Source: Methanobacteriota archaeon | GTDB lineage: Archaea > Thermoplasmatota > Thermoplasmata > SG8-5 > DAIRED01 | Assembly (NCBI GenBank): GCA_043799545.1 | Contig: JAZDNO010000026.1 | Coordinates: 1-64,000 of the forward strand | Reading direction: 5' to 3' | DNA: 64,000 bases | The notes under the pieces: generated by a model | The model's database searches: none | What the model was told of the DNA's origin: nothing | Seen by the model: only the letters and a program-made list of their open reading frames with translations | Program-made: the position numbers and the translations under genes | Part shown: positions 3,418-37,602 of the stretch, piece after piece | How positions within the stretch are numbered: position 1 is the stretch's first letter | How the letters are laid out: each line of letters begins with the position of its first letter

Positions 3418-4308
3418 CTATGGCTGATAAGTGCCGCCGGGCTTGCCCTCGCGGTCCTCCAAGGGGGGCGGCAGGGCAATACGCTCGCTCCCGGGCCTGA
3501 AATCGGCACTCGCCTTTTTCCGCTCCTTCAGAACCTCGACCTTGCCGTCTATCCTCACCTGCATGCCGTCCTCAGCCGCGACGACGTTCATACCCGTCTT
3601 CTCGCGCACCCACTGCGCCTCCCGCTCCGGACCGGATTTCAGGACCTTGAGCCCGAAGTGCGTCATCACGGCAAGCTCGGGCTTCGCAATCTTGACGAAC
3701 TCTGCGATGTCCTCCGTGCACATGTGCCCGGGAATGCGCCCCTGGATGGGCCTGGTGGCAGGGAGGATGAGGAGGCGCGCGCCGCGGTGCCTCATGGCGA
3801 GCTCTTCCGAATACTCCGAGTCGCTCACGTACGATATCGCCCCCGACAGGGTGTTGAAGCGGAAACCGACTGTGGATTCGTCGGTGTGCTTCGAGGGGTG
3901 CACCTCCACGTTGAGCCCGTCGAGGAAGTACTTGTCGCCGACGCGGGCGGTCTTGACCTGCGCCGGCTTCGATAGGTGGTACCTGGAAATGATGGGCCAG
4001 TAGTTCCCCATCCCCTCCGTGACGCTGCGGCTGCCTATTAGGATTCCACGGTGGCGAGTGCCGCCTTCGGTCATGGCCTCCACCAGGACGTCCGCGTCCC
4101 CGTAGTGGTCGGGGTGGCCGTGCGAAACGACGATGACGTCCGTCAGCCTGGGGTCGAGACCCATCTTCACCATGGAGACCAGCGCCCCCGGGCCGGGGTC
4201 GACGTGTATCCTGATGTGGTCCTCGATGTAGACTCCGCCAGTGCCGCGCATCTGGGTTATTGTCGCGAAGCGCCCGCCGGAAGTGCCGATGAAGGTGACT
4301 GTGGTCAC
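3418..4308 (-). CDS. Metallo-beta-lactamase-fold hydrolase
   Basis: TFIGTSGG, HVDPGPG, SHGHPDHYGD (HxHxDH), YVSDS, THFG motifs. Confidence 0.9.
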   Translation of the reverse strand: MTTVTFIGTSGGRFATITQMRGTGGVYIEDHIRIHVDPGPGALVSMVKMGLDPRLTDVIVVSHGHPDHYGDADVLVEAMTEGGTRHRGILIGSRSVTEGMGNYWPIISRYHLSKPAQVKTARVGDKYFLDGLNVEVHPSKHTDESTVGFRFNTLSGAISYVSDSEYSEELAMRHRGARLLILPATRPIQGRIPGHMCTEDIAEFVKIAKPELAVMTHFGLKVLKSGPEREAQWVREKTGMNVVAAEDGMQVRIDGKVEVLKERKKASADFRPGSERIALPPPLEDREGKPGGTYQP

Positions 4309-4353
4309 GAAACCCGGATGGGCAGGGCATCAAATACGTTTTGGGGTCCGGAA

Positions 4354-7300
4354 TCACCAGTCCACGGTCCAAACGGTGTCCACCGTTGCATAGACCCAGT
4401 AGCCCTCGCCGCGCTTCATTACGTGGGCGTCGCCAAGCCCCGCGCTGCGATACTCCGACGCCAGGTCCATGCCCTCGACTGCCGTCGCGCCAGTGTCCAT
4501 CCGGAATTGCCCTATCGTGTACGCTCTATCGTCGTTCGCTCTGTAGCCGACCATGTTCCAACCCGCGTGCAGCGTCACGTCTGTCGAGGTCGGCGAGTCC
4601 CCCTCCACAACTAGAAGGCCGTCGGCCATTTCCGCAACGCGCAACCAGAACGCCGCTCCGGCTGGGATGACGCTAAGGTCATTGAACGATGAGGGCCAGC
4701 CAGTGTAATACCGCTTCCAATGGTCAGCGGTATCCGCCGAATCGTAATACATGACGCAATCCCATCGGGTTCCCATTCCGCAATCGTCTAGAATCTCAAC
4801 AAGGTTCGCGGCGCCGGTAGCTATGGGTATGGATATCAGATTCCATCCCTGGAAGACCGGAACGCCGAAGCGCACCGGCACCTTGGAAACGAGAAAGTCG
4901 CTGAAGTGCTCGACATCGCCCCATAGCGTGTCGGTGAATGTGTCGACGCCAGTCGGGTCGCACGCTTCATAGCCCTGGATGTAGGGATTGTAGACGTTGA
5001 GCACCATGTCGTCCTCCGTTACGCCGGCGGGTATGTCGGCGGCGGAGTAATGGATTGTCATCGTGGCCATGATCATGGAGGCTGTTATCCTGGCGTCCGC
5101 GACAATCTCGTAGCTCTTGCCATCGTTCGCTGTCCTGTGCTCCACGATGACGATGCTTGCCTCGTGGATTGGGGTGGCGAAGGTGAAGTTCAAGGTGAGG
5201 TTGGTCGTTGCGGACGCCACGTTCGCCGCACTGCCAGAGAATGTAAGCGCGTCAACCATTGCCGAGTCCGGGGGGAACGCGCACAGCACGCCCTGGGTTT
5301 CATAAACGACGTCCCCCACCGAGACATCCGCGACGTAGGAGCCCGGCACCAGCTCGCTCGACTGGATCTCGATTGAACAAATGCCGTCGGAGGGCGTCGC
5401 ATCGCCGTGTGTTCCGTCGTCGTAGAGCGGGAGGCGATACGTGACGCCGTTCCTTGCTCCGCGAAGCGAGACTCTCTCGGCACCGCCGGGCGCCTCCACC
5501 GCCAAATGAACCGTATCGCCCGCTCCCGCCACGGCAGGAGTGATTGTGACCCCTGCTGCATCGCCTGGGTGGTCGAGGAAGAATTTGTCCTTGGAGCCGT
5601 CGTTCTCGCCATCCAGGTAACCCTCGCCGCTCGCCGTGGCCATTATCCTGTACGTCCCGGGGACCGAGGAGTTGACCCCGAAATAAAATCTGCCCACGTA
5701 AGTCCCCCGGGAGGCCTCGGTTATCGTGATGGAGGTGTTGGTTAAATCCGGTGCGATTATCCTTGCGGAAACGGATGCGCCCTCGATCGGCTGGCCAAGG
5801 TATGTGACCTTGACCGATATGTCGGCGAACTCGTCCACGCCGCTGACGTACTTCTGCTTGTCGGAGCAGGCCTTGACCTTTAACTCGCCGCATGTGGGAG
5901 AAACGAACAGCTGCTTCGAGGCCTGGTTGTTGCCCATGTCCGCCTCTGGCGGGTCGGAGTCGGTGATGTCCACGATTATCGTGTGGTTGCCGTCCGCGTT
6001 CGCATTCCAGTACGCCGACACCGTTGCGTAACCTCCCGCTGGCACAAAGAACTCGAATTCGCGCCATATCAGGTACTCTTCGCTTGCGTTGTCGAGATAG
6101 AAGGAAACCGTGCAGACCGCGTTCAGTGAGCCCGTGTTGTGCGTCTCGGCGTCGATGGTGATGTCATCCCACAGATGCGGGTTCGGGTCGGAGAATGCGA
6201 TGCCGTCGGCGGAGATGGATATGTCCGGAGGTGCGACGGCAATTACCGTCATGGCATAATCGCTGGTTTGCGGGAGAGAGTAATAGTCATTAGGCGTCGT
6301 ATAGATGCATAGTGCCCAATTGGTCAAGTTCGTGCCATATGCCACGCCGCCGTCGACTTGAACCCGAATCGTAAAATAGTGCACGCCTGGCATCACGCCC
6401 GTGTACTCGAAAAACAGGTTTCCGCCGTTTATGGCGCGGAATACGAACGTCGCTCCGACAGCCTCCGAGGCAGTGTCGTTGACATAGGTTACCCCGGCAG
6501 GAAGCGTGTCGTTGAAACTGGCGCTCGCCGCGGTTCCGCTTCCCGTGTTGTTGAACCAAAGGGTGTAATCCAAAAAGTCCCCGGGGGAGGCTGTCGCTTT
6601 GTCCACAGTCTTCGAGAGGGCGATTGAAGGGCAGGAGACTGTGGTGACCGCCCAATCCTCGGTGACAACTCCAGACGGCTCATAATCGCAAGTAACATGG
6701 TTTGAGAGCAGCGCTCCGTCCAGTACGTTACCATTGATGCGAGCAGTTATTGTAAAAACGTGCATGCCAGGCGGAACGTTTGCGAATCTATAGTTGATGT
6801 TGTTGCCTGCGATGTTGCGAGAGGTGAAGTACGGCAAAGATGCAGCGGAATCGCTGATGTAGGCCATCCCTGTCGGCAGAGTGTCGTTTATCCACACGTA
6901 ATCCGCGCTCACCAGGCCCGTATTGGCGAAGGATATCGTGTAGGTCAATATGTCGCCAGGATATGCGATTGCACGATCCACGGTTTTGTCCACCCCAACT
7001 GTCGGGGCGCTCAGGTTCCCGGTCACGTTCACGATGCAGTAGTCGCAACCCGCCATTCCAGTGTCGTCCCATACCGTAAGATTGACCATGTAGCTTCCTG
7101 GCGTTTCGTATTTATGGCTCGCAAACATCCCTATGCCAGAGTTACCGTCCCCGAAGAACCATGTGTAATTCTCCTCCCCGAAAATAAATCCATCAGGATC
7201 ATATGATGCGGTTCCGTTGAAATAAGCATACTCCTCCAGGGCCACAGCCTGGTATCCGGGCAGCGCCACTGCAACCGGGGGCAGCCCAGCAACGGCATTG

Positions 7301-7413
7301 ATCGAGACGAACGATGCGAGCACCATCGCCCCAACGACGAAAATGGCTACGCATCTCCGCGCAACACTTCCCTTGCCCACAATGTACGCCTCACAGCCCT
7401 CCTGTCGAGTCAT
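4354..7413 (-). CDS. Secreted/cell-surface protein: signal peptide, PKD, 2x DUF11, CARDB-like, DDGxHGD motif, C-terminal GWN-repeat domain
   Basis: Hydrophobic N-terminus. PKD: FNGTASYDPDG...WFFGDG...HKYETPGSYMVNLTV. DUF11: DKTVDRAIAYPGDILTYTI and SKTVDKATASPGDFLDYTL. Also YDDGTHGDATPSDG, GWNLISIP and GWNMVGY. Confidence 0.85.
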   Translation of the reverse strand: MTRQEGCEAYIVGKGSVARRCVAIFVVGAMVLASFVSINAVAGLPPVAVALPGYQAVALEEYAYFNGTASYDPDGFIFGEENYTWFFGDGNSGIGMFASHKYETPGSYMVNLTVWDDTGMAGCDYCIVNVTGNLSAPTVGVDKTVDRAIAYPGDILTYTISFANTGLVSADYVWINDTLPTGMAYISDSAASLPYFTSRNIAGNNINYRFANVPPGMHVFTITARINGNVLDGALLSNHVTCDYEPSGVVTEDWAVTTVSCPSIALSKTVDKATASPGDFLDYTLWFNNTGSGTAASASFNDTLPAGVTYVNDTASEAVGATFVFRAINGGNLFFEYTGVMPGVHYFTIRVQVDGGVAYGTNLTNWALCIYTTPNDYYSLPQTSDYAMTVIAVAPPDISISADGIAFSDPNPHLWDDITIDAETHNTGSLNAVCTVSFYLDNASEEYLIWREFEFFVPAGGYATVSAYWNANADGNHTIIVDITDSDPPEADMGNNQASKQLFVSPTCGELKVKACSDKQKYVSGVDEFADISVKVTYLGQPIEGASVSARIIAPDLTNTSITITEASRGTYVGRFYFGVNSSVPGTYRIMATASGEGYLDGENDGSKDKFFLDHPGDAAGVTITPAVAGAGDTVHLAVEAPGGAERVSLRGARNGVTYRLPLYDDGTHGDATPSDGICSIEIQSSELVPGSYVADVSVGDVVYETQGVLCAFPPDSAMVDALTFSGSAANVASATTNLTLNFTFATPIHEASIVIVEHRTANDGKSYEIVADARITASMIMATMTIHYSAADIPAGVTEDDMVLNVYNPYIQGYEACDPTGVDTFTDTLWGDVEHFSDFLVSKVPVRFGVPVFQGWNLISIPIATGAANLVEILDDCGMGTRWDCVMYYDSADTADHWKRYYTGWPSSFNDLSVIPAGAAFWLRVAEMADGLLVVEGDSPTSTDVTLHAGWNMVGYRANDDRAYTIGQFRMDTGATAVEGMDLASEYRSAGLGDAHVMKRGEGYWVYATVDTVWTVDW

Positions 7414-7538
7414 TTTGCTTCACCATCCGACATCATGCCTCCGACAGTATTTAAACGTCTCGTGCTGCTGCACAAGTTGCACGGCATTAATTATATATTT
7501 AAACAAGTGCAACAGACAGGAATGTTTTTATATTAAAG

Positions 7539-10265
7539 ATGCGAATAATGGTCGTGCACGGACGGAACGGTTTCACACCGACTCAGGCGAAGATAGTTTC
7601 CCACCTCGCGCCTTTCGCACGCTTGGCCAACAGCTACCTGCAGCCGGACCTCGTGACCCAGGACGGGATAGCGCGCTCGGTGGGAATAGCCAGGAACCAC
7701 GTCCCGCATGCCATCAACGATCTGATTGCCAACGACTACGTCACTTCGAGGAAGGCCAGGGTCGACGGGGCGGCGCGGAGGAAAACGTGCTACTTCCTCA
7801 CGGAGGGAGGACTGCAATCATCCAAGGAACCCGCCGAACTACCCGCGCGCAGGAAGAAGCCATCGCGGGATCGCGGGCGGTTCGTCGGGCGGCGCCGGGA
7901 GCTGAAAGAGCTGGCATCATGGCTCAAGGGTGGCGCGCCAGTCTTGGTCCTTGAAGGCGAGCGGGGCATGGGAAAAACTGCGTTGCTCCGGAGATTCCAG
8001 GAGAGAACCGAGAAAAGGCATGTCTTCTGCTGGTCGCTGACAAATGACGGAACGCTGCGGGACGGGTTGATCTCTCTGGCGGATGGGCTTCCCGACGGAC
8101 AGGGAAGGATGCTCGCCTACATGGTGAAAACAGAGCCGGGAATAAACCACTGTAGAGCGGTCGGCATGCTGGACGAGATCGATAAACCGCTCGTCCTCGT
8201 CCTTGACGACGCGGACCGCCCGGGCGCCAAGGCTGACGCGGAAGCGATGGCGGGAGCCTTCGCCAAGGCCCGGAAAGCGAGGCTGCTGCTGGCGGGTGAA
8301 AGGTTTGAGCTGCATTGCCGCCCATCTCGGATTCGCTTGGATGGGCTGTCGCGCGCTGAGACGGAAAAACTCGCGAAGATGCTGGGGCGCGGCGACCCAG
8401 CGGAGGCGTACGAATCGTCGGGAGGCAGGCCCTGGCTTGTGGAGATGTGGAGCCCCGCGACAAAAGGCGCGAGCGCTATTTCAAGCGCCCCAGTCCAGCC
8501 GATGTCGAAGAAGGAGGCGCGCGCTTTGGAAATGCTGATGCTCTTCGGACGTCCGGTCCACTTGGGCGAGGCTGCGGCGCTGGGATTCGATTACCAGGTC
8601 ATCTCGTGGCTCGCGGGAAAGAGATGCGTCACGATTGCCAACGGGCGCATCCACCCGCTCGGGCGAGGGTCGGTGTCGCCGCGGAAAAACGAGCGAGGAC
8701 GGAACCGAGGAGGCGCGCGCGTGGCGCGAGCCATATTGGCGACTTGGAACGACCCGACGCATGACGCGGAGGCGTGCGCCCACTATCTCGACGCCGGAGA
8801 CGACGCGGCATGCGGGAAGGTTGTCGCCGAGAAAGGGGAGCGGATGCTCAAGGCCGGCTTCGCCCCCAGACTGGACGAAATATTATCTGGACTCAAAACC
8901 GAGAGATTGGACGCGCACGCCCATGCAAGGGTGCTCACGGTCATGGGTGCGATGAAGAAGATGAGGGGGGAGTGGGAAGGCGCCCTCGTGTGTTTCGAGA
9001 AAGCGAGACATCTGGGGGGTGGAGACGACGCTTATTGGGCGGAATCTACAGCACGAATCGCGTCCGTATACCTTGCAAGGAGGGACCTGGCTAGAGCCCT
9101 GAAAACGTACGGCGAGGCGCTCGTCCGCCTGCCGCGCGGCCAACCGCGCATCGAAGCCAGGATACGGGACGAAATCGCAACAGCGCTGCTGAGGAACGGC
9201 GACGCTGACGGCGCCTCCGCTTCGAGCGACATCGCCGTGGCCAGGGCAGGCGAAACCGGGGATGCGGAGCTCGTCGGGCTCTGCGAGGCGACGCGGGGCA
9301 ACGTCTTTGCCGCGAGGGGGGATTTCGCAGAGGCCGAGCGCTGCTTCTCCGAAGCCTTGGCCAAGGTCCGCGCGGTCTCGAATGTGCGGGCCGAGGGAAC
9401 GATCTTGATAAACCTGGCAGGAATCCAGCAAAGAATGGGCAACATCGGCGCTGCAGCGGCCATGTGGAAGGACAGCGCGGCGCTTCTCGAAAGGCACGGC
9501 GACCCAAGGTACTGCATGGCGCTTGCAAACCTCGCCACCGCGCTCTGGCGCACCGGAGACTGGGTAGGTTCCAGGGAGTGCAGGGCGAAGGCCCTTTCGC
9601 TTGCGAGGATTGTAAACGAGAAGGCCGTGGAGGGTGCGATGCTCACGGTCGAAGGCAACGAGGAGATGCTCTCCGGCAGGATTGAAGATGCCGTACGCAG
9701 CTACCGGGGCGCGCTCGACATTAAAAACGCTCTGCCAGACATGCGCGCGAGGGTGCGGGCGCGATGCGATGTCGCGAACGCGCTCGTATCCGCCAAGCGG
9801 CCGGGGGAAGCCTTGGAAGTCCTGAAAAGCGACGTCGATTGGGCGAAATCAGCAGGATGTTCGGAGGAGGCGGCCGGAGCCCTCCTTTCTGCTGCGAGGG
9901 CTGAGCTCGCTGGCGGGAACGGGGCCGGGGCGCGGGGCTTGTTGAAGTCCGCACTGTCCGCGTGCGCCGCGGGCGACAGGCCAAGCTCTGCGAGGGTGCT
10001 CAGGACGCTCGGGGTCTGCGCTGCGGTGGACGGCGAGTGGTACGTAGCCAAGAGATACCTTGATGATGCGTTGGCCATGTTCAAGGAGTCCGGCGAAGCC
10101 GTGGAATACGCGACGACGCTGCACGACATCGCCCGCGCCTTCAAGTTGCTCGGCCTTGACGGGGCAGACGCAGCGATGGAAGCTGCATCGGAATCCGCAA
10201 AGAAAATCGGCATGGCTTTCCCTCCTTTGAACTCGGATTGGCTGCTCGCTGCAAACCCGGCATAG
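7539..10265 (+). CDS. Winged-HTH + STAND-like P-loop ATPase + TPR repeats (MalT-like regulator architecture)
   Basis: TQDGIARSVGIARNHVPHAINDL (HTH); FVGRRREL; Walker A GERGMGKT; Walker B LVLVLDDAD; Ala-rich TPR-like helices in the C-terminal half. Confidence 0.8.
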   Translation: MRIMVVHGRNGFTPTQAKIVSHLAPFARLANSYLQPDLVTQDGIARSVGIARNHVPHAINDLIANDYVTSRKARVDGAARRKTCYFLTEGGLQSSKEPAELPARRKKPSRDRGRFVGRRRELKELASWLKGGAPVLVLEGERGMGKTALLRRFQERTEKRHVFCWSLTNDGTLRDGLISLADGLPDGQGRMLAYMVKTEPGINHCRAVGMLDEIDKPLVLVLDDADRPGAKADAEAMAGAFAKARKARLLLAGERFELHCRPSRIRLDGLSRAETEKLAKMLGRGDPAEAYESSGGRPWLVEMWSPATKGASAISSAPVQPMSKKEARALEMLMLFGRPVHLGEAAALGFDYQVISWLAGKRCVTIANGRIHPLGRGSVSPRKNERGRNRGGARVARAILATWNDPTHDAEACAHYLDAGDDAACGKVVAEKGERMLKAGFAPRLDEILSGLKTERLDAHAHARVLTVMGAMKKMRGEWEGALVCFEKARHLGGGDDAYWAESTARIASVYLARRDLARALKTYGEALVRLPRGQPRIEARIRDEIATALLRNGDADGASASSDIAVARAGETGDAELVGLCEATRGNVFAARGDFAEAERCFSEALAKVRAVSNVRAEGTILINLAGIQQRMGNIGAAAAMWKDSAALLERHGDPRYCMALANLATALWRTGDWVGSRECRAKALSLARIVNEKAVEGAMLTVEGNEEMLSGRIEDAVRSYRGALDIKNALPDMRARVRARCDVANALVSAKRPGEALEVLKSDVDWAKSAGCSEEAAGALLSAARAELAGGNGAGARGLLKSALSACAAGDRPSSARVLRTLGVCAAVDGEWYVAKRYLDDALAMFKESGEAVEYATTLHDIARAFKLLGLDGADAAMEAASESAKKIGMAFPPLNSDWLLAANPA

Positions 10266-30310: not shown

Positions 30311-31510
30311 TCAGAACGTCTTGATGTCGCCAGCCACGCACATTTTCGTTATCTTGGGGAGGTCCTTCAGCCACCTGTCCGTGATGGCCTCGACGTCCGA
30401 TTTGACCTTCTCGAACTTGACGCCTTTCTCCATTATGAGGTGGACGTTTGCAGCGAGCGGCTGGTCAATCGGCTTCCCGATCTGGGAGAGCAGCCTGACG
30501 TGGGCCTCCTGGACCGAGCCCTCGTGGTCCTTCGCAATCTGGTCCGCGATTTGGATGGCGAGGAGGTTGTACATCTTCCCCACGTGCGTCACGGGGTTCT
30601 TTCCGGACGTGGCCTCGAGGCTCATCGTGCGGTAAGGCGTGATGAGGCCGTTCGCCCTGTTGCCCCTTCCGACGTTGCCGTCGTCGCCGTTCTCCATCGA
30701 CAGCCCGGTCACGGTCAGGTAGTAGATTTTCTTCTTGTAATCGTCCGCAGTGTTGACAAAGACCTTGACCTCGCGGTCCGTGTACTTGGTCGCGTTGTCC
30801 GCTACCTTGTCGTGAAGCTCCTCGACCACGCTCTTGTAGTGGTCGACGTCCGGTATCTTCGGCGACACCATCGCCGCCGCCACCGTCAGGTAAATCGTCT
30901 CGCCTATCCTGGCGGCCATGACCTTGACATCCTCGCCCACTTCCGGTAGCGCGCGCTTCAGAGGCCCGTTGATTAGCTGCTCTGTCTTGAGCGTGAGTAG
31001 CTCCGTCTCGGAGAACGGCGCGAAGCCGACCCCGAAAGACGTGTCGTTGGCGAGGGACATCTTCGTTTCGTAGACGCCCCTCAGGTCGAGGGAGCCCTGT
31101 CCTATGCGGCAGTCTATCATGACGTCCCAGTCCACGTTCAGGTTCCTGCACGTCTTCTTCAGGTAATCGTAAGCAGCTTTGACTGCGACGGACCTGAACG
31201 GCAGGCGCTCGCCGCCAACCTCCGTGACCGCGCGGCCCACAAGCAGGACATAGATGGGATCGAGGATCCTTCCGCCGCCGAATTTCGGGGCCGCCTGGCC
31301 GCCGACAATCTGGCACTCGTCGGTGTTGTGGTGAAGTATGGTGTTGAACTCTTCGTTGTACATCTTGCAGAGCCCCACAGAAACGGATTCGGCTATGCCG
31401 TCGGCTATGCTGTCGGGATGCCCGATGCCCTTCCTCTCCACCATCTCGGTCTTCTGCTCCTCAATCGGCGTCTGGTTCATCAGTTCCACGTATATGTTTC
31501 TCGCAGTCAT
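30311..31510 (-). CDS. mat: Archaeal S-adenosylmethionine synthetase
   Basis: EMVERKGIGHPDSIADGIAE, LHHNTD, ANDTSFGVG, GEDVKVM, GDDGNVGRGNR, GKNPVTHVGK. Confidence 0.96.
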   Translation of the reverse strand: MTARNIYVELMNQTPIEEQKTEMVERKGIGHPDSIADGIAESVSVGLCKMYNEEFNTILHHNTDECQIVGGQAAPKFGGGRILDPIYVLLVGRAVTEVGGERLPFRSVAVKAAYDYLKKTCRNLNVDWDVMIDCRIGQGSLDLRGVYETKMSLANDTSFGVGFAPFSETELLTLKTEQLINGPLKRALPEVGEDVKVMAARIGETIYLTVAAAMVSPKIPDVDHYKSVVEELHDKVADNATKYTDREVKVFVNTADDYKKKIYYLTVTGLSMENGDDGNVGRGNRANGLITPYRTMSLEATSGKNPVTHVGKMYNLLAIQIADQIAKDHEGSVQEAHVRLLSQIGKPIDQPLAANVHLIMEKGVKFEKVKSDVEAITDRWLKDLPKITKMCVAGDIKTF

Positions 31511-31599: not shown

Positions 31600-32817
31600 G
31601 TGCGAGCGATGGTCGGGGAAACGCCTTGCAAGATATGTGGCACGCCCATTCCGCACGGCCAAGACAAGTGTCCCCTCTGCGGGACCGAGTTCTCTCGTTC
31701 GGAAGGCGGAAAGGTGAAAACCAAGGTCTCCACTGAGAAGAAGGCGGCGGAGAAACTGGACATAGACATCTCAGACCCAGAGGTGCGGCGGGTCCTGGAA
31801 GAGCTCACGCTCATCCCCGGCATTTCCAGGCGCGGCGCTCTAATCCTCTACAAGCAGGGGATACGCACTGTCTCCGATTTTATCAAGAAGGCCATGCCCG
31901 GAGAGGCGATGAGCGAGCGATACGCCCAGGTCATCGCCAACAGGCTGGCAATCGATTCCGCCAAGGGAACCGGCCAGGTCGCGGAGCGGAAGGTCCCGTG
32001 CCCGTCGTGCAGGTCTCCCAACAAAGCGGCCTCGAAGAAGTGCGGGGTCTGCGGCGCTCAGATTTCGACCGTGAGGAAGAACGTCGACCTCGAGCAAATC
32101 CAGGGCCGTGTGAACGAGACGATTAAAGAGGTCCTGGGAGACTTCGCGGAATCCGAGGATTTCGGGGCGCTCCCAAGCGATATGAAGGAAGAGATCGCCG
32201 CCGTCCTTTCTTCCGAGAGGGAAATAACTGAGGAGGAGGTAAAGGACGTCGCCAAGACGCTGACATCACTACCCGAGGACATGACTCAGATTGTCGATGA
32301 CATCGCGCTGGGGGAGGACGATTTCGGGGAGGGGAAGGGTGAGGAAGACGGAGGTGGTGAGGGCGAATCGTCCCCGGTAGAGAAAAGCTCTCGGCAACTC
32401 AAGAAGAAGCAGATTCTGATGGCGAGGCTCGAACGGTGGAAGAAGATGGGCTACGACGTCTCCGAACTGGAGCCACTCGTCGACGGTGACTTCGAGACCT
32501 TCAAAACAAAGGCGAAGGATATACTGTCCAGCAAGCTGAACAAGGCTGCCGCGAAAGGCACCGCCAAGCCTCCCTCCGAGAAGGCGGGCGATTCTAAGAA
32601 ACAGGCTCCGCCAGCCTCCCAGAAAACCGACGGCGGAAAGGCCCCAGGAAAGAGGGGCGCCACGCCGGAGGAGCGCGCAAAGTTCCTGAGGCAAATCGGA
32701 GTCTGGAAGGAAAGGGGCTTCGACGTCGCAGGTCTGGCCGAGCTTCTCGAAACGGACATGGCGGAGTTTAAGAAGAGGAGCATGGCGATGTTGAAAGCGC
32801 AGATGAGCAAGAAGTAG
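31600..32817 (+). CDS. Hypothetical protein: zinc ribbon, helix-hairpin-helix, second zinc ribbon, acidic linker, 2x WxxxG(Y/F)DV repeat
   Basis: CKIC...CPLC; LTLIPGISRRGALILYKQG (HhH-like); CPSC...CGVC; WKKMGYDVSEL and WKERGFDVAGL. Start may be ATG at 31609. Confidence 0.75.
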   Translation: MRAMVGETPCKICGTPIPHGQDKCPLCGTEFSRSEGGKVKTKVSTEKKAAEKLDIDISDPEVRRVLEELTLIPGISRRGALILYKQGIRTVSDFIKKAMPGEAMSERYAQVIANRLAIDSAKGTGQVAERKVPCPSCRSPNKAASKKCGVCGAQISTVRKNVDLEQIQGRVNETIKEVLGDFAESEDFGALPSDMKEEIAAVLSSEREITEEEVKDVAKTLTSLPEDMTQIVDDIALGEDDFGEGKGEEDGGGEGESSPVEKSSRQLKKKQILMARLERWKKMGYDVSELEPLVDGDFETFKTKAKDILSSKLNKAAAKGTAKPPSEKAGDSKKQAPPASQKTDGGKAPGKRGATPEERAKFLRQIGVWKERGFDVAGLAELLETDMAEFKKRSMAMLKAQMSKK

Positions 32818-32822
32818 CCATA

Positions 32823-33827
32823 TTGGTGCGGGCAATGATCACCGTCAAAAACGTCACAAAAAGATACCGGAAGAACGCCAAGAGCAGCTCGTGGAAGACA
32901 AGGGTCAAACAGATGTTCAGCGACAAGAAACGCGAATCCATGACTGCGCTGAACAACGTCGATTTCCAGGCGAACGGCGGAGAGATAATCGGAATCCTCG
33001 GGCCGAACGGCGCGGGAAAGACCACGCTTTTAAAAATAATCGCGGGGTTGCTTGTGCCAGAGGTCGGCCAAGGCGAGGTCAACGGATTCGACATCGTCAA
33101 GGACAGGGAAAAGGTGAGGACGTCGGTGAACTTCCTCATGAGCGGCGGCTGGGTCATCTTCGATTACAAATTCTCCGTGCGGGACAATCTTAGGTTTTGG
33201 GGGGTCTACCAGGGGTTGAGCCTGAAGGACGTCGACCAGAGGGTGGCGGAGGTTTTAAAGGTTGTCGAGCTGGAGGAGAAGAAAGACGAATTCCCCGAAA
33301 ACATTTCCGCCGGGATGAGGCAGAGGATGAACCTTGCCAGATGCCTGCTCGTCGACCGCCCGGTGTATCTGCTGGACGAGCCGACGGCCAACCTGGACCC
33401 CTACTCGGCCGAATTCATTAGGAAGTTCGTGAAGGAGAAGCTCCGAACGGACAATAAGACAATCGTCCTCGCGACCCACAACCTCTGGGAGGCCGAGCTG
33501 CTGTGCGACAGAATCGTCATCCTTAACAAGGGCGAGGTTCTGCTCGCGGACAAAACGGAGGAGATAAAAAGAAAGATCGGCAAGGAGGTGGCCATCATCG
33601 AGATCGAAAGTGAGGACGCGGAACTGCTGAAAACTTTCCGGGGGCTGGATTTCGTGGACAGCGCCACGCTGGAGGGAAACCGCCTGCGAATATTCGGCGA
33701 CGTTAAGAGAAACCTCCCCCGCATCATCGACATCTGCCGGGAGCGCACGACCGTCACAAGCGTGAACGTCCAGGAGCTCTCGCTGAACGACATATTCATC
33801 CAGCTGGTGAGCAGGGGTGAAACATGA
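32823..33827 (+). CDS. ABC transporter ATP-binding subunit (export type)
   Basis: Walker A GPNGAGKTT, signature variant ISAGMRQR, Walker B VYLLDEP, ATH switch. Confidence 0.93.
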   Translation: MVRAMITVKNVTKRYRKNAKSSSWKTRVKQMFSDKKRESMTALNNVDFQANGGEIIGILGPNGAGKTTLLKIIAGLLVPEVGQGEVNGFDIVKDREKVRTSVNFLMSGGWVIFDYKFSVRDNLRFWGVYQGLSLKDVDQRVAEVLKVVELEEKKDEFPENISAGMRQRMNLARCLLVDRPVYLLDEPTANLDPYSAEFIRKFVKEKLRTDNKTIVLATHNLWEAELLCDRIVILNKGEVLLADKTEEIKRKIGKEVAIIEIESEDAELLKTFRGLDFVDSATLEGNRLRIFGDVKRNLPRIIDICRERTTVTSVNVQELSLNDIFIQLVSRGET

Positions 33828-34681
33828 TAAAGCACAGCCTCTCGCTCTCGGAAAAGCTCGAAGTAGTATATATTTCGATGTGGAGGTACGGGAAGTTAAT
33901 GACCAGATTTAAAACGAGCTTCTTCTTTTCCATAGTCGCCATGTTCGTCTCGATTACGACATTCTACTACTTCGGACAGGTGTTCGGGGACGCCACTGCC
34001 GTGGCCGTTGAAGACTACGGTGGCAACTACTTTTCCTATGTGCTCATCGGACTCGCGTTCAATCAGTTCGCTGTCACTAGCCTCAGCACCTATCTCGCGA
34101 CCGTACAAAATATATATTGGTCCAACTGGCTCGAGCTGATACTGACAGCCCCCATGCGCCTCAAGACATATTTCGTCGCTGCGATGTCCTGGGCTTACAC
34201 GTACTCGACTATCCTCATCGCCTTTTACTTCATCATCGGGGTCGGGATATTCGGGGCCGCGATTGCATTCCCCCCAGGCTGGTACGTCATCATACTCATC
34301 CTGTTCTTGACTGTCCTAAGCATCTCGGGCATCGGTTTGATGGCCGCAAGCACTTTCATGCTGTTGAACGCGAAAGGCCAGGTGGAGCCCATCAGCTGGT
34401 TCGTGGGCACGGTTTCCGCCCTTGTCTGCGGGGTCTATTATCCGCCCGAATTGCTGCCCCCGTCCATCCATGCCATCTCATACATCTTCCCGCACACGTA
34501 TGCCCTCGAGGGGCTGCGAGAGATACTCCTGAACGGGAAAGGCCTCATGGACCCGTCCATCCAAATGATAATCCTGATATTGGCAATATTCTCCATGATA
34601 CTCCTGCCGCTGGGAATGGCGATGTTCAAGTCAGGAATTAAAAAGGCTGAGAAGGATGGAACCCTGGCAAGATGGGTTTGA
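33824..34681 (+). CDS. ABC-2 type permease
   Basis: Six TM segments; LELILTAP; GVYYPPELLP...PHTYALEGLR; ATGA overlap with the ATPase gene. Confidence 0.9.
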   Translation: MIKHSLSLSEKLEVVYISMWRYGKLMTRFKTSFFFSIVAMFVSITTFYYFGQVFGDATAVAVEDYGGNYFSYVLIGLAFNQFAVTSLSTYLATVQNIYWSNWLELILTAPMRLKTYFVAAMSWAYTYSTILIAFYFIIGVGIFGAAIAFPPGWYVIILILFLTVLSISGIGLMAASTFMLLNAKGQVEPISWFVGTVSALVCGVYYPPELLPPSIHAISYIFPHTYALEGLREILLNGKGLMDPSIQMIILILAIFSMILLPLGMAMFKSGIKKAEKDGTLARWV

Positions 34682-34790
34682 TTCTGCGATCCAGCCCCCG
34701 CGCGATTTCATCGAATTCGCGAGCGGTTGTGCGGCGCGGAATGCAAATCAATTGATGTATTGGGTCACAACAATGTTAATCTATGTGATT

Positions 34791-34806
34791 CCAAAAAATA
34801 TAAATA
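34791..34806 (+). promoter_or_regulatory. Archaeal BRE/TATA promoter upstream of the putative precursor peptide
   Basis: CCAAAAAATATAAATA; an ATCAATTGAT palindrome at 34747-34756 may be an operator. Confidence 0.55.
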
Positions 34807-34879
34807 TGAGATGTAACATTCACGATTCACCCTGACATGCAAAAGCATGTGTGTGGTAACCAAGAAAGGGAGGTTAAAA

Positions 34880-35017
34880 ATGCCAGGAGACGGAAATGGA
34901 TTCGACCCCATCGACCCGGGCCAGGGATACAAGCACAGGCACGGACACGAAGCAACCGGATGCGGATGCGTAGAGGTTGGTTCCATATACGCAGTATTCG
35001 ACCCACAGCCGGTTTAA
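34880..35017 (+). CDS. Putative RiPP precursor peptide, 45 aa: MPGDGNGFDPIDPGQGYKHRHGHEATGCGCVEVGSIYAVFDPQPV
   Basis: Below the ORF-track cutoff. SD GGGAGGT at 34868-34874 is 5 nt before the ATG; the ORF lies between an ABC exporter and two rSAM/SPASM genes; an 8-bp hairpin overlaps the stop. Confidence 0.75.
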   Translation: MPGDGNGFDPIDPGQGYKHRHGHEATGCGCVEVGSIYAVFDPQPV

Positions 35018-35141
35018 TCGATTTAAACCGACGGAGAAAAACTCTTCCAATCTTTCTATAATTATTAATAACTGATAATAATAGGGAGCAGCGCGGGCTG
35101 CCAGAGGTGGTTTCACGGAAAAACCGAAACTCGCAAAGGCT

Positions 35142-36491
35142 GTGGTCGTCAAGAAGAAGAACGGAAAGAGCGCGTTCATTCACCCCGACATTCCCAAATG
35201 GCTCGCTTTCCGCGCCGAGGGGGCCCGGACCCTGGAGCTGTGCGACGGAACGCGGAGCGAGCGGGACATCATCGAGACAATTTCGAGGGAATTCAACGAG
35301 CCCATGGAGTATGTGGGGAAGGGAGTCGCCGGCCTACTTAGCCACTGCGAGAAGCAGGGATTCTTCCAGGATGTCACCCCGAAGAGACCGGACGCCCTGC
35401 CAGTGGAGATGAAGATACTCTACCTGAACATCACCCGGGAGTGCAACCTGAGGTGCACCTATTGCTATGCGAGCGCGGGCGCCCAGCGGGAAAAAGAGCT
35501 GACTCTGGAGGAGATAAAGAAGCTCCTGAGCGAGTTCCACGCCCTTGGAAAAGGGACGCGGCAGAACGTCATAATAACTGGCGGGGAGCCGCTGCTGAGG
35601 AAAGACTTCTGGCAGATTGCCGAATATGCGAGGTCGCTGGGGCTCGTCCTTGTGCTTTCCTCAAACGGACTCCTCATCGACAGGGAGACTGCAAGGAAAT
35701 TGGGTAAGCTCTTCGGCGGCGTGCAGATCAGCCTCGACGGCGACAGGGAGATGCACGACAAATGCCGGGGCAAGGGGTCCTTCGACGGGGCGACGAGGGG
35801 CATAGAAAACCTGGTCGAAGCCGGCATCACGCCGTCGATATCTGCCACTGTGACAAAAGAGAACTTCAAAAAGCTGGACAACCTGTGGGACGTGTGCGAC
35901 AAGTACAAAATAAAGCACGTGAAGACCAACCCCATCATCCCCCTAGGCCGGGCGGAGAGCGACAGAGACGAGATAATGCTGTCGAGGGACGAATACATAG
36001 AGCTCTGGAGGGCGACCAAGCAGCAGCTCAAGAAGCGCCGCCTGGAGGTCACGATAGATAACGAGCGGTCCATTTTCTCGGGAGGCACGTCGTTCAAGGG
36101 CACGGGCAACTCTTGCGGAGCCGGCCGGACGTCCATCAGCTTCGAATCCAACGGGGACGCCTATCCGTGCCAGGCATCGCATCTCCCGCAGTTCCTCTGC
36201 GGTAACATAAGGGAGAAATCTCTGGAAGAGATCGTGACGGGGGCGGAAGTTCTGAAGGACTGGATGGGCCGCTCAATCAACGACATTCCGGGATGCAGCT
36301 CCTGCGAATGGAAGATGTACTGCGGCGGCGGCTGCTTCCTGCAGGCGGCTCTGGGCCACGGGACCGTGCACGCGCCGGATGTCTATTGCGACGTTTACAA
36401 GTTCGAATACGAGGAGACGTTTTGGGAATTTGTGGACAAAAGGGAAAAAGAACAGGAGGAATCAAATGACGGGCAAGCAGCCAAAGTTTGA
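35142..36491 (+). CDS. Radical SAM/SPASM peptide maturase with N-terminal PqqD/RRE-like domain
   Basis: GARTLELCDGTRSERDIIETISREF (PqqD-like wHTH); CNLRCTYC; TGGEPLLR; QISLDG; SPASM CGAG...YPC...CSSCEWKMYCGGGC...YC. True start may lie slightly upstream. Confidence 0.9.
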   Translation: MVVKKKNGKSAFIHPDIPKWLAFRAEGARTLELCDGTRSERDIIETISREFNEPMEYVGKGVAGLLSHCEKQGFFQDVTPKRPDALPVEMKILYLNITRECNLRCTYCYASAGAQREKELTLEEIKKLLSEFHALGKGTRQNVIITGGEPLLRKDFWQIAEYARSLGLVLVLSSNGLLIDRETARKLGKLFGGVQISLDGDREMHDKCRGKGSFDGATRGIENLVEAGITPSISATVTKENFKKLDNLWDVCDKYKIKHVKTNPIIPLGRAESDRDEIMLSRDEYIELWRATKQQLKKRRLEVTIDNERSIFSGGTSFKGTGNSCGAGRTSISFESNGDAYPCQASHLPQFLCGNIREKSLEEIVTGAEVLKDWMGRSINDIPGCSSCEWKMYCGGGCFLQAALGHGTVHAPDVYCDVYKFEYEETFWEFVDKREKEQEESNDGQAAKV

Positions 36492-37602
36492 AATCAAGAG
36501 CGGGCGAATTTACTACGAGAACATACCGCCGGGAACGCCTATGTCCCAGCTGATGACGGGATTTTTCAAGGACAAAATAGAGAACGAGGGGATGGGTCCG
36601 CTGATGGCGCAGTGGATAGCGACCAGCAAATGCAATTTCAGGTGCCCGCATTGCGGCACCGCGGCCTCTGAGGCAAAGCCCGACGAGCTGAGCTGGGCCC
36701 AAATCAAACCGGTCATAGAGGATTTGGCAAGCATGGGATGCAAGACTTTCACGATGACCGGGGGGGAGCCGATACTGCGACCGGATTTCTGGAAGATCGT
36801 GGACCACGCCCACGCCAACGGGATGAAGACCGGATTCGTGACGAACGCCTGGGCCATAAAGGATTTCGAGGACGAGCTGAGGCGAGCCAAGATAGAGACC
36901 ATCCTGGTCAGCATCGACGGCTACAGAGAGAACCATGACAAAATCCGCGGGATGCCCGGCTCGTACAAGAAGTGCCTCGAGGCCATCCGGTTCCTGAAGG
37001 ACATCGGCACCCCCGTGGTGGGCGTGTCGACGGTCTACATGAAGGACAACGTCGATTTCCTGCCGCAAATCGTGGACGAGGCGGCCAAAGCCGGCGCGGA
37101 CAGGCATCGCCTCCAGGCCATCGTGCCGGAGGGGCGCTCGAAGGGCAAGGGTAACAGCCGGGAGGAGATAAAAAAGGCCATAAAATTCGTCTACGACGCC
37201 AGGAAGCGAGGGGTCAACATCGAGGTGTGCGAGGCGCACGGATGGCTCGGGCCGCTTGACGGCATCCTGAGGGCCAACTTCTACTGCGGCATCGGCCTGA
37301 ACACGCTGTGCATAATGCAGAACGGCGACGTCATGGGCTGCTCCCTCATGGACTACCCGGACAAGACAGAGGGGAACGTGAAGGACAAAAGCATCAAGGA
37401 CATATGGTTCAACGGTTTCAAGATGTACAGGCAGCCTACGCTCCCGGACCTCCCCAAGGAATGCACCGACTGCAAGCAGCTCATCGAGTGCAGGGGCGGA
37501 TGCTGGCTCCACCGCATGAACAACAACTTCTGCTTCCTCCCCATGGCCGTGGAGGTCGCGCGAGAATCTGGGGATTTCCCCAATCTCGACGAGAAGTACT
37601 GA
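36466..37602 (+). CDS. Second radical SAM/SPASM enzyme (no RRE)
   Basis: SD CAGGAGGA before ATG 36466; CNFRCPHC; TGGEPILR; VSIDG; SPASM CGIG...MGC...CTDCKQLIECRGGC...FC; overlaps the first rSAM by 26 nt. Confidence 0.92.
   Translation: MTGKQPKFEIKSGRIYYENIPPGTPMSQLMTGFFKDKIENEGMGPLMAQWIATSKCNFRCPHCGTAASEAKPDELSWAQIKPVIEDLASMGCKTFTMTGGEPILRPDFWKIVDHAHANGMKTGFVTNAWAIKDFEDELRRAKIETILVSIDGYRENHDKIRGMPGSYKKCLEAIRFLKDIGTPVVGVSTVYMKDNVDFLPQIVDEAAKAGADRHRLQAIVPEGRSKGKGNSREEIKKAIKFVYDARKRGVNIEVCEAHGWLGPLDGILRANFYCGIGLNTLCIMQNGDVMGCSLMDYPDKTEGNVKDKSIKDIWFNGFKMYRQPTLPDLPKECTDCKQLIECRGGCWLHRMNNNFCFLPMAVEVARESGDFPNLDEKY

Follow-up and report, generated by a model that had tools for sequence, protein, structure and literature searches.

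The five-gene locus and its peptide gene

The window analyzed here is a stretch of 64,000 nucleotides (nt) from the genome of a Methanobacteriota archaeon (assembly GCA_043799545.1, contig JAZDNO010000026.1, positions 1 to 64,000); this metagenome-assembled genome falls in the Thermoplasmatota/Methanomassiliicoccales. Between 32.8 and 37.6 kb, five co-oriented genes on the + strand encode, in this order, the ATPase and the permease of an ATP-binding cassette (ABC) transporter, a peptide of 45 amino acids (aa), and two radical S-adenosylmethionine (SAM) enzymes containing SPASM domains, designated rSAM1 and rSAM2. An earlier note made from the DNA sequence had listed these genes, all of which are present, and had proposed that they specify a peptide that is made on ribosomes and then post-translationally modified (RiPP), belonging to a new archaeal class with two maturation enzymes.

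The peptide gene (34880 to 35017, + strand) is preceded by the Shine-Dalgarno sequence GGGAGGT (34868 to 34874, + strand), located 5 nt before the ATG codon. The closest orthologue of rSAM1 (61% identical) was found on contig C16 of genome G016, and a second orthologue, a partial copy that is 65% identical, on L110. In both cases, an open reading frame (ORF) of 41 to 43 aa lies just upstream on the same strand, behind a GGAGGT motif occupying the same position as in the window. The three peptides share 17 invariant positions, which make up an N-terminal segment (M-x-G-x-G..P-I-x-P, also G-x-G..[FY]-x-P-I-[DT]-P) and the core motif (G-C-G-(x)-C-[VI]-[ED]-V-G-[SP]-I-Y-[AS]-x-F-x-P). Twelve of the 24 residues that are identical in the peptides of the window and of G016 are specified by different, synonymous codons, and the conserved positions in the DNA alignment of the peptide loci cluster in the ORF and its Shine-Dalgarno sequence. 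Judged by this comparison, the 45-aa ORF is a real gene and more than a chance occurrence, since two other loci retain it while their codons have drifted synonymously. This agrees with the earlier note, which had singled it out for its strong Shine-Dalgarno sequence. In contrast, neither the HxHxH motif of the peptide nor its pair of FDP motifs is conserved in the orthologues, and they were rejected as functional features. An ATG codon at 34847, which would extend the peptide to 56 aa, was also rejected, since both the orthologues and the Shine-Dalgarno sequence point to 34880 as the start.

In line with the earlier note, no Pfam or NCBIfam model matched the peptide, which ends in DPQPV. A search of 5.8 billion proteins returned only the peptide itself, and no match above 0.84 was found in the ESM Atlas. 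Scanning metagenome contigs with the peptide pattern gave a sole match, L118, which was dismissed as fortuitous because it is antisense within a bacterial membrane-protein gene.

Several features surround the peptide gene. The promoter assigned to it in the earlier note amounts to no more than an A/T-rich, TATA-like stretch read from the sequence at 34793 to 34806 (+ strand), which may be an archaeal promoter; in the orthologous loci, a TTTATATA box precedes the ATG of the peptide gene by about 60 nt. A weak 8-bp hairpin (35010 to 35030, + strand; z = -1.7) spans the stop codon and is followed by an A/T-rich tract. The hairpin is not visibly conserved; the orthologues have instead oligo-T runs after the peptide gene.

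The ATPase is of the DrrA type (32835 to 33827, + strand). Its ORF opens with TTG at 32823, the likely start codon being ATG 32835, and the protein matched the Pfam models ABC_tran (106 bits) and DrrA1-3_C (40.7 bits); it scored 228 bits against the drrA model TIGR01188, under the cut-off of 312. The gene of the ABC-2 type permease (33824 to 34681, + strand; PF01061, 48 bits) has a start codon overlapping the ATPase stop codon by 4 nt. The Pfam scan confirmed that the transporter is devoid of a C39 peptidase domain and that the operon contains no dedicated protease gene. The G+C content dips to 0.54–0.56 over 32 to 36 kb, the surroundings being at about 0.60. The gene preceding the ATPase ORF, which it approaches to within 5 nt, encodes a 405-aa Lys/Glu-rich protein (31600 to 32817, + strand) in which the sequence W-K-x-x-G-[YF]-D-V is repeated and two zinc-ribbon motifs are present; it is not kept beside related clusters. 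An archaeal-type S-adenosylmethionine synthetase (PF01941, 559 bits) is encoded on the opposite strand (30311 to 31510) 1.3 kb upstream of the operon. The operon has two SAM-consuming enzymes, and this proximity may be a coincidence.

The two radical SAM enzymes and their conservation

rSAM1 (35142 to 36491, + strand; 449 aa) starts at GTG 35142, the sole start codon in the open frame. It consists of a RiPP recognition element (RRE; residues 1 to 73), a radical SAM domain with the CxxxCxxC motif C101/C105/C108, and a SPASM domain (residues 325 to 416); Pfam scores were 98 bits for Radical_SAM and 36 bits for SPASM (PF13186). For this protein alone, the PqqD-like domain scored 21.2 bits, below the cut-off of 23.4. 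PqqD (PF05402) was detected in six of the seven members of the rSAM1 family, with a best E-value of 3.6e-7, and a profile of the 97 N-terminal positions matched the RRE of the lasso-peptide protein TbiB1 from end to end (E = 1e-4), as well as PqqD. In the AlphaFold model, which has a predicted local distance difference test score (pLDDT) of 81, three strands and three helices (pLDDT 81 to 95) precede the radical SAM barrel. On the combined evidence of the profiles and the predicted fold, rSAM1 carries a genuine RRE, in agreement with the assignment made in the earlier note.

The rSAM2 gene (36466 to 37602, + strand) encodes a second enzyme with radical SAM (96 bits) and SPASM (PF13186, 32 bits) domains and no RRE; in its model (pLDDT 89), just a hairpin and one helix precede the barrel. 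The Pfam scan and the model thus bear out the description of an RRE-less second enzyme overlapping rSAM1. The start codon had to be corrected: ATG 36379, the first ATG of the ORF, was rejected in favor of ATG 36466, where the orthologues begin and which has AGGAGG (36454 to 36459) seven bases ahead. With this start, the gene shares 26 nt with the end of rSAM1. The CxxxCxxC cysteines of rSAM1 and those of rSAM2 (C56/C60/C63) are invariant in the respective family alignments, and each family has seven invariant C-terminal SPASM cysteines.

No NCBIfam model matched rSAM1 or rSAM2 at its cut-off. The best curated family for rSAM1 was StsB (NF045574; 190 bits versus a cut-off of 625); MftC (TIGR03962; 166 versus 265) came second, and lower scores were obtained for AhbD (151 versus 500), NirJ2 (150, the cut-offs for NirJ, AhbC, and AhbD being 500 to 650), PqqE (TIGR02109; 100 versus 381), the SCIFF maturase (TIGR03974; 98.9 versus 425), and the SkfB family TIGR04403 (92 versus 300). 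For rSAM2, the scores were 138 bits for TIGR04133 (cut-off 425), 136 for MftC (second-best curated family; cut-off 265), 129 for StsB (cut-off 625), 124 for NirJ2, 122 for AhbD, 89 for PqqE, and 74 for SkfB (TIGR04403; cut-off 300). The earlier note had named grouping with cofactor-maturation families (NirJ/AhbC-D and PqqE) as evidence that would count against its reading; neither enzyme reaches the cut-offs of these families or that of MftC.

The conservation of the operon was surveyed in 22 species genomes of the Methanomassiliicoccales and in metagenome contigs. The rSAM1 clade comprised seven loci in 4 of the 22 species genomes and three metagenomic fragments; it was not found in a genome of the same genus that is 84% complete. 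A diverged locus of Methanomassiliicoccales archaeon CSMAG_1752 (L015, the same place as L019) contains all five genes in the same order, with identities to the window of 47% for the ATPase, 40% for the permease, 38% for rSAM1, and 50% for rSAM2. Its small ORF has the same position and the same composition but a different sequence. A small ORF encoding a candidate precursor was also present upstream of every paralogous rSAM1 gene (33–38% identity); its product has two or three Cys residues and, after them, a hydrophobic stretch that usually reads Y-[AG]-[IV]-[FM]. Among the eight peptides of the family (three orthologous and five paralogous), all retain at least two Cys, although their alignment contains just one invariant Cys column and the sequences diverge fast among paralogues. 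An upstream peptide is indeed retained beside homologous enzyme pairs, a point that the earlier note had wished to see checked. DrrA and ABC-2 genes accompany four of the seven loci. Orthologues of rSAM2 (72%, the one in the closest orthologous locus, 73%, and 50% identical) were solely found beside rSAM1 family members in G016, apart from a single 44% identical copy that belongs to another order and sits at the end of a contig. The rSAM2-like gene of G036 is located at a contig end. Together, these loci show the 45-aa gene to be a conserved partner of rSAM1, and rSAM2 to be a co-inherited second SPASM enzyme.

A truncated copy of rSAM2 (254 aa, without the CxxxCxxC motif) is present on G016 contig C16 (L014, 8496 to 9260, - strand), 2 kb away from the full copy, with which it shares 85% identity. 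Its position between two divergent units, each containing rSAM1 and a peptide gene, makes it look like a partial duplication.

The core clade of the rSAM1 tree (support 96/93) divides into two halves, namely (P0004, (window, G016-C16a)) and (G016-C77, (G000-C2, (G006, G014))), in which G000-C2 is the paralogue on contig C2 of the genome of the window. Since each half includes loci bearing rSAM2, the ancestor of the clade probably already had this enzyme, which would have been lost in the branch leading to G000-C2, G006, and G014, which have enzyme 1 alone. Thus, the expression "two-enzyme" describes this operon and not the family. The rSAM1 paralogue of the C2 locus is about 35% identical to rSAM1, and its peptide (L018, 7169 to 7312, - strand) contains 47 aa and ends with SCHGPCDHGLPPGTAGIMIIIGPWAGNPIQP.

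Predicted chemistry and alternative readings

The locus thus combines the CxxxCxxC motifs, the SPASM cysteines, a fused RRE, and a short Cys-containing precursor conserved beside its maturase. The conserved peptide, the RRE, and the conserved five-gene order make it very probable that the cluster directs the modification of a ribosomal peptide, as the earlier note had concluded. In the mechanism that we propose, rSAM1 would dock the peptide via its RRE, which would contact either the N-terminal segment [FY]-x-P-I-[DT]-P or the hydrophobic I-Y-A-x-F strand, and would connect Cys28 and Cys30 with carbon atoms of core residues farther downstream, generating a small thioether hairpin. rSAM2 would next introduce a second modification in the same core, which may be another cross-link or an epimerization. 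The pump would export the product or protect the producer, and the leader, if removed, would be cut by a protease encoded elsewhere. We favor an operon for an exported, radical-SAM-modified peptide with this full sequence of steps, albeit with moderate confidence.

The nature of the cross-links was considered by comparison with characterized enzymes. The SCIFF thioether maturase CteB (PDB 5WHY/5WGG) has the full RRE-radical SAM-SPASM architecture of rSAM1 and was both its best sequence match in the PDB (E = 4.6e-24) and its best structural match (template modeling score of 0.68–0.74 over 441–449 columns), although the two enzymes are just 18–20% identical. The peptide of the window is not a SCIFF (six-Cys) precursor since it contains two Cys and matches no NCBIfam model. 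SkfB, the sactisynthase of the sporulation killing factor (PDB 6EFN), was the best sequence and structural match of rSAM2. The alignments with SkfB end before the second half of the SPASM domain. The closest folds to the rSAM2 model were SkfB, SuiB, anSME, and PqqE. Precord et al. (2023; PMC10288494) have reported that six residues lining the catalytic site are a better guide than overall similarity for sorting thioether-forming enzymes. StsB resembles MftC in overall sequence and yet forms thioethers. These residues are F,F,T,S,H,Q in CteB and Y,T,I,S,K,L in StsB according to these authors. The same landmarks were taken from HMMER alignments for rSAM1 (Y109, T146, S173, S197, Q344, and A345), SkfB (Y,T,F,S,Q,L), and anSME (F,Q,Q,S,D,F), and from the family motifs for rSAM2 (G,T,V,S,S,L). 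rSAM1 has four of the six residues in common with SkfB (Y, T, S, and Q), three with StsB (Y, T, and S), and one with CteB. Within a comparison limited to SkfB, StsB, CteB, and anSME, the active site of rSAM1 therefore looks most like those of enzymes connecting Cys to alpha-carbons (SkfB and StsB). A small thioether hairpin is preferred because the StsA and BlaA precursors have closely spaced Cys bridged to residues a few positions downstream (PMC10288494), and the Cys pair is here followed by the invariant V-G-x-I-Y. By this analogy, formation of a sactipeptide-type hairpin by rSAM1 is plausible, with the balance standing about even.

Several observations weigh against the proposed scheme. 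The six-residue profile of rSAM1 fully matches no known group. The peptide core lacks the CxC...GxG type of pattern (CxCxC-x4-GxGxG in StsA and CxC..GxG in BlaA), having one conserved Gly after the Cys pair, and the two Cys are not always equally far apart (CGC versus CGNC). No ABC pump lies near the closest orthologous locus, on G016 contig C16. The peptides of G006 and G014 have just eight residues before the first Cys, which makes an N-terminal leader doubtful for the whole family; the recognition element may be the hydrophobic segment. The distant L113 cluster (3828 to 9456, Logan SRR25621642) encodes three radical SAM enzymes, namely a 42%-identical rSAM2-like enzyme, a HemN-like enzyme, and a 27%-identical RRE-rSAM-SPASM enzyme, together with a Cys-free peptide of 34 aa. 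The G-D-P-I-E-P and Y-A-A-I-D-D-P sequences of this peptide resemble F-D-P-I-D-P and Y-A-V-F-D-P of the window, suggesting that rSAM2 may act on the shared YA-x-[FI]-D-P motif and not on Cys.

These observations are relevant to an alternative that keeps the operon and its substrate and changes the chemistry. Enzymes of the SuiB and PqqE types form carbon-carbon or carbon-oxygen links. One or both of the enzymes might introduce such links in the Tyr/Phe segment (I-Y-A-x-F), the two Cys then serving as a disulfide or as metal ligands. The presence of SuiB and PqqE among the nearest folds of rSAM2, the second rank of MftC for both enzymes, the Y-[AG]-[IV]-[FM] motif of most paralogous peptides, and the pairing in L113 of an rSAM2-like enzyme with a Cys-free peptide are consistent with this possibility. 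It nevertheless appears unlikely, since Cys residues are retained in all eight peptides of the clade, Tyr is absent from the paralogous peptide of contig C2, and the site of rSAM1 is nearer to SkfB and StsB than to CteB and anSME, the only other enzymes compared. A more radical departure would be to consider the peptide as the precursor of an intracellular redox cofactor related to mycofactocin or pyrroloquinoline quinone, which would not be secreted. The MftC scores (166 and 136 bits) and the PqqD-type RRE, which mycofactocin maturation also uses, point in this direction, but the scores are well below the cut-off of 265 bits and the peptide lacks the C-terminal Val-Tyr required by the MftC reaction (PMC10288494). 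The Pfam scan detected no other cofactor-pathway family in the neighboring genes, the ABC-2 exporter travels with the enzymes, and the patchy distribution of the family and the fast divergence of its peptides are also at odds with a cofactor, which we regard as very improbable. Finally, the small ORF might not be a substrate at all, the enzymes maturing a protein, like CrpC, or a tetrapyrrole, like AhbD and NirJ, with an unrelated pump. CrpC provides a precedent for an archaeal SPASM enzyme with a large protein as its substrate (PMC13692751), and AhbD and NirJ2 gave about 150 bits with rSAM1, far under the cut-offs of 500 bits. This last alternative is hardly credible given the conservation of the ORF at the protein level in all orthologous loci, the fused RRE, which points to a peptide substrate, the conserved five-gene order, and the lack of an adjacent large Cys-rich protein.

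Returning to the modified-peptide operon, the proposal of a new two-enzyme archaeal class made in the earlier note is not established. Classes are defined by chemistry, both enzymes fall within the SPASM radiation that includes CteB, SkfB, StsB, and MftC, rSAM2 has been lost in one branch, and pathways with two radical SAM enzymes already exist in bacteria. One of them, ruminococcin C biosynthesis, also combines two radical SAM/SPASM enzymes (RumMC1 and RumMC2) in one modified-peptide cluster (PMC8188230). The RumMC family was absent from the 25 best NCBIfam matches of either enzyme, and the present operon differs from that pathway in having just one precursor gene and an RRE in just one of its two enzymes. 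The StsB and BlaB systems differ in being bacterial and in having a single radical SAM enzyme, and StsB relies on StsC, a stand-alone RRE protein, in contrast to the fused RRE of rSAM1. CrpC of Methanococcus voltae, which acts on CrpA, is an archaeal RRE-rSAM-SPASM enzyme installing thioethers (PMC13692751, 2026), but its substrate is a large Cys-rich repeat protein and not a short peptide; it belongs to family TIGR04463, which was not among the top matches here, and its core cluster has a single radical SAM enzyme and no ABC pump. It is doubtful that the RRE-bearing rSAM1 and the RRE-less rSAM2 define a new archaeal class, in which rSAM1 would form Cys-derived links and rSAM2 a non-thioether modification of I-Y-A-x-F-D-P. 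If they did, the product would be doubly cross-linked, with a scaffold not seen in bacteria.

What is new here is a rare gene family, the kind of pathway, for radical-SAM-modified peptides, being already known. Full-text literature searches found no description of this gene family and no paper combining Methanomassiliicoccales, radical SAM, and RiPP, and CrpC was the only biochemically characterized archaeal SPASM thioether enzyme that they returned. Archaeal clusters of the sactipeptide and ranthipeptide types appear as counts in antiSMASH genome mining (PMC12144867). Modified peptides of archaea are almost unexplored, and the operon is a small, complete, and evolutionarily validated unit, with one precursor, two enzymes, one pump, natural sequence variants, and a natural comparison of one-enzyme and two-enzyme loci within the clade. 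It therefore provides a practical entry point to archaeal radical SAM peptide chemistry. It also bears on whether relatives of the methanogenic Methanomassiliicoccales use such peptides in competition or signaling.

More distant relatives

By the searches made, the family is small and restricted to the Methanomassiliicoccales and related Thermoplasmata. A profile search of 5.8 billion proteins returned six clusters above 400 bits, two of which are the proteins of this genome itself, and the named ones belong to the Thermoplasmata; the next scores were 347 bits and below. Of 80 more distant radical SAM loci from genome contigs, those outside the Methanomassiliicoccales contained neither an rSAM2 orthologue nor a matching pump. 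Among the next relatives, at about 30% identity, are methyltransferase-fused enzymes of Nitrospirota and a cluster of Thermococcus prieurii.

The rSAM2-like domains of L116 (5987 to 7963) and L117 (1809 to 3773) are fused to an N-terminal Band_7 (stomatin-like) domain and lie beside FtsX permeases and further radical SAM genes. The T. prieurii cluster (L119, 3123 to 7414; BAAHYH010000001) comprises a small ORF that contains A-C-A-C-Q-C-G (CxCxC) together with a run of Gly. It also encodes a DrrA ATPase with an ABC-2 permease, an rSAM-SPASM enzyme 31% identical to rSAM1, PqqD as a separate protein, and an S24-like peptidase.

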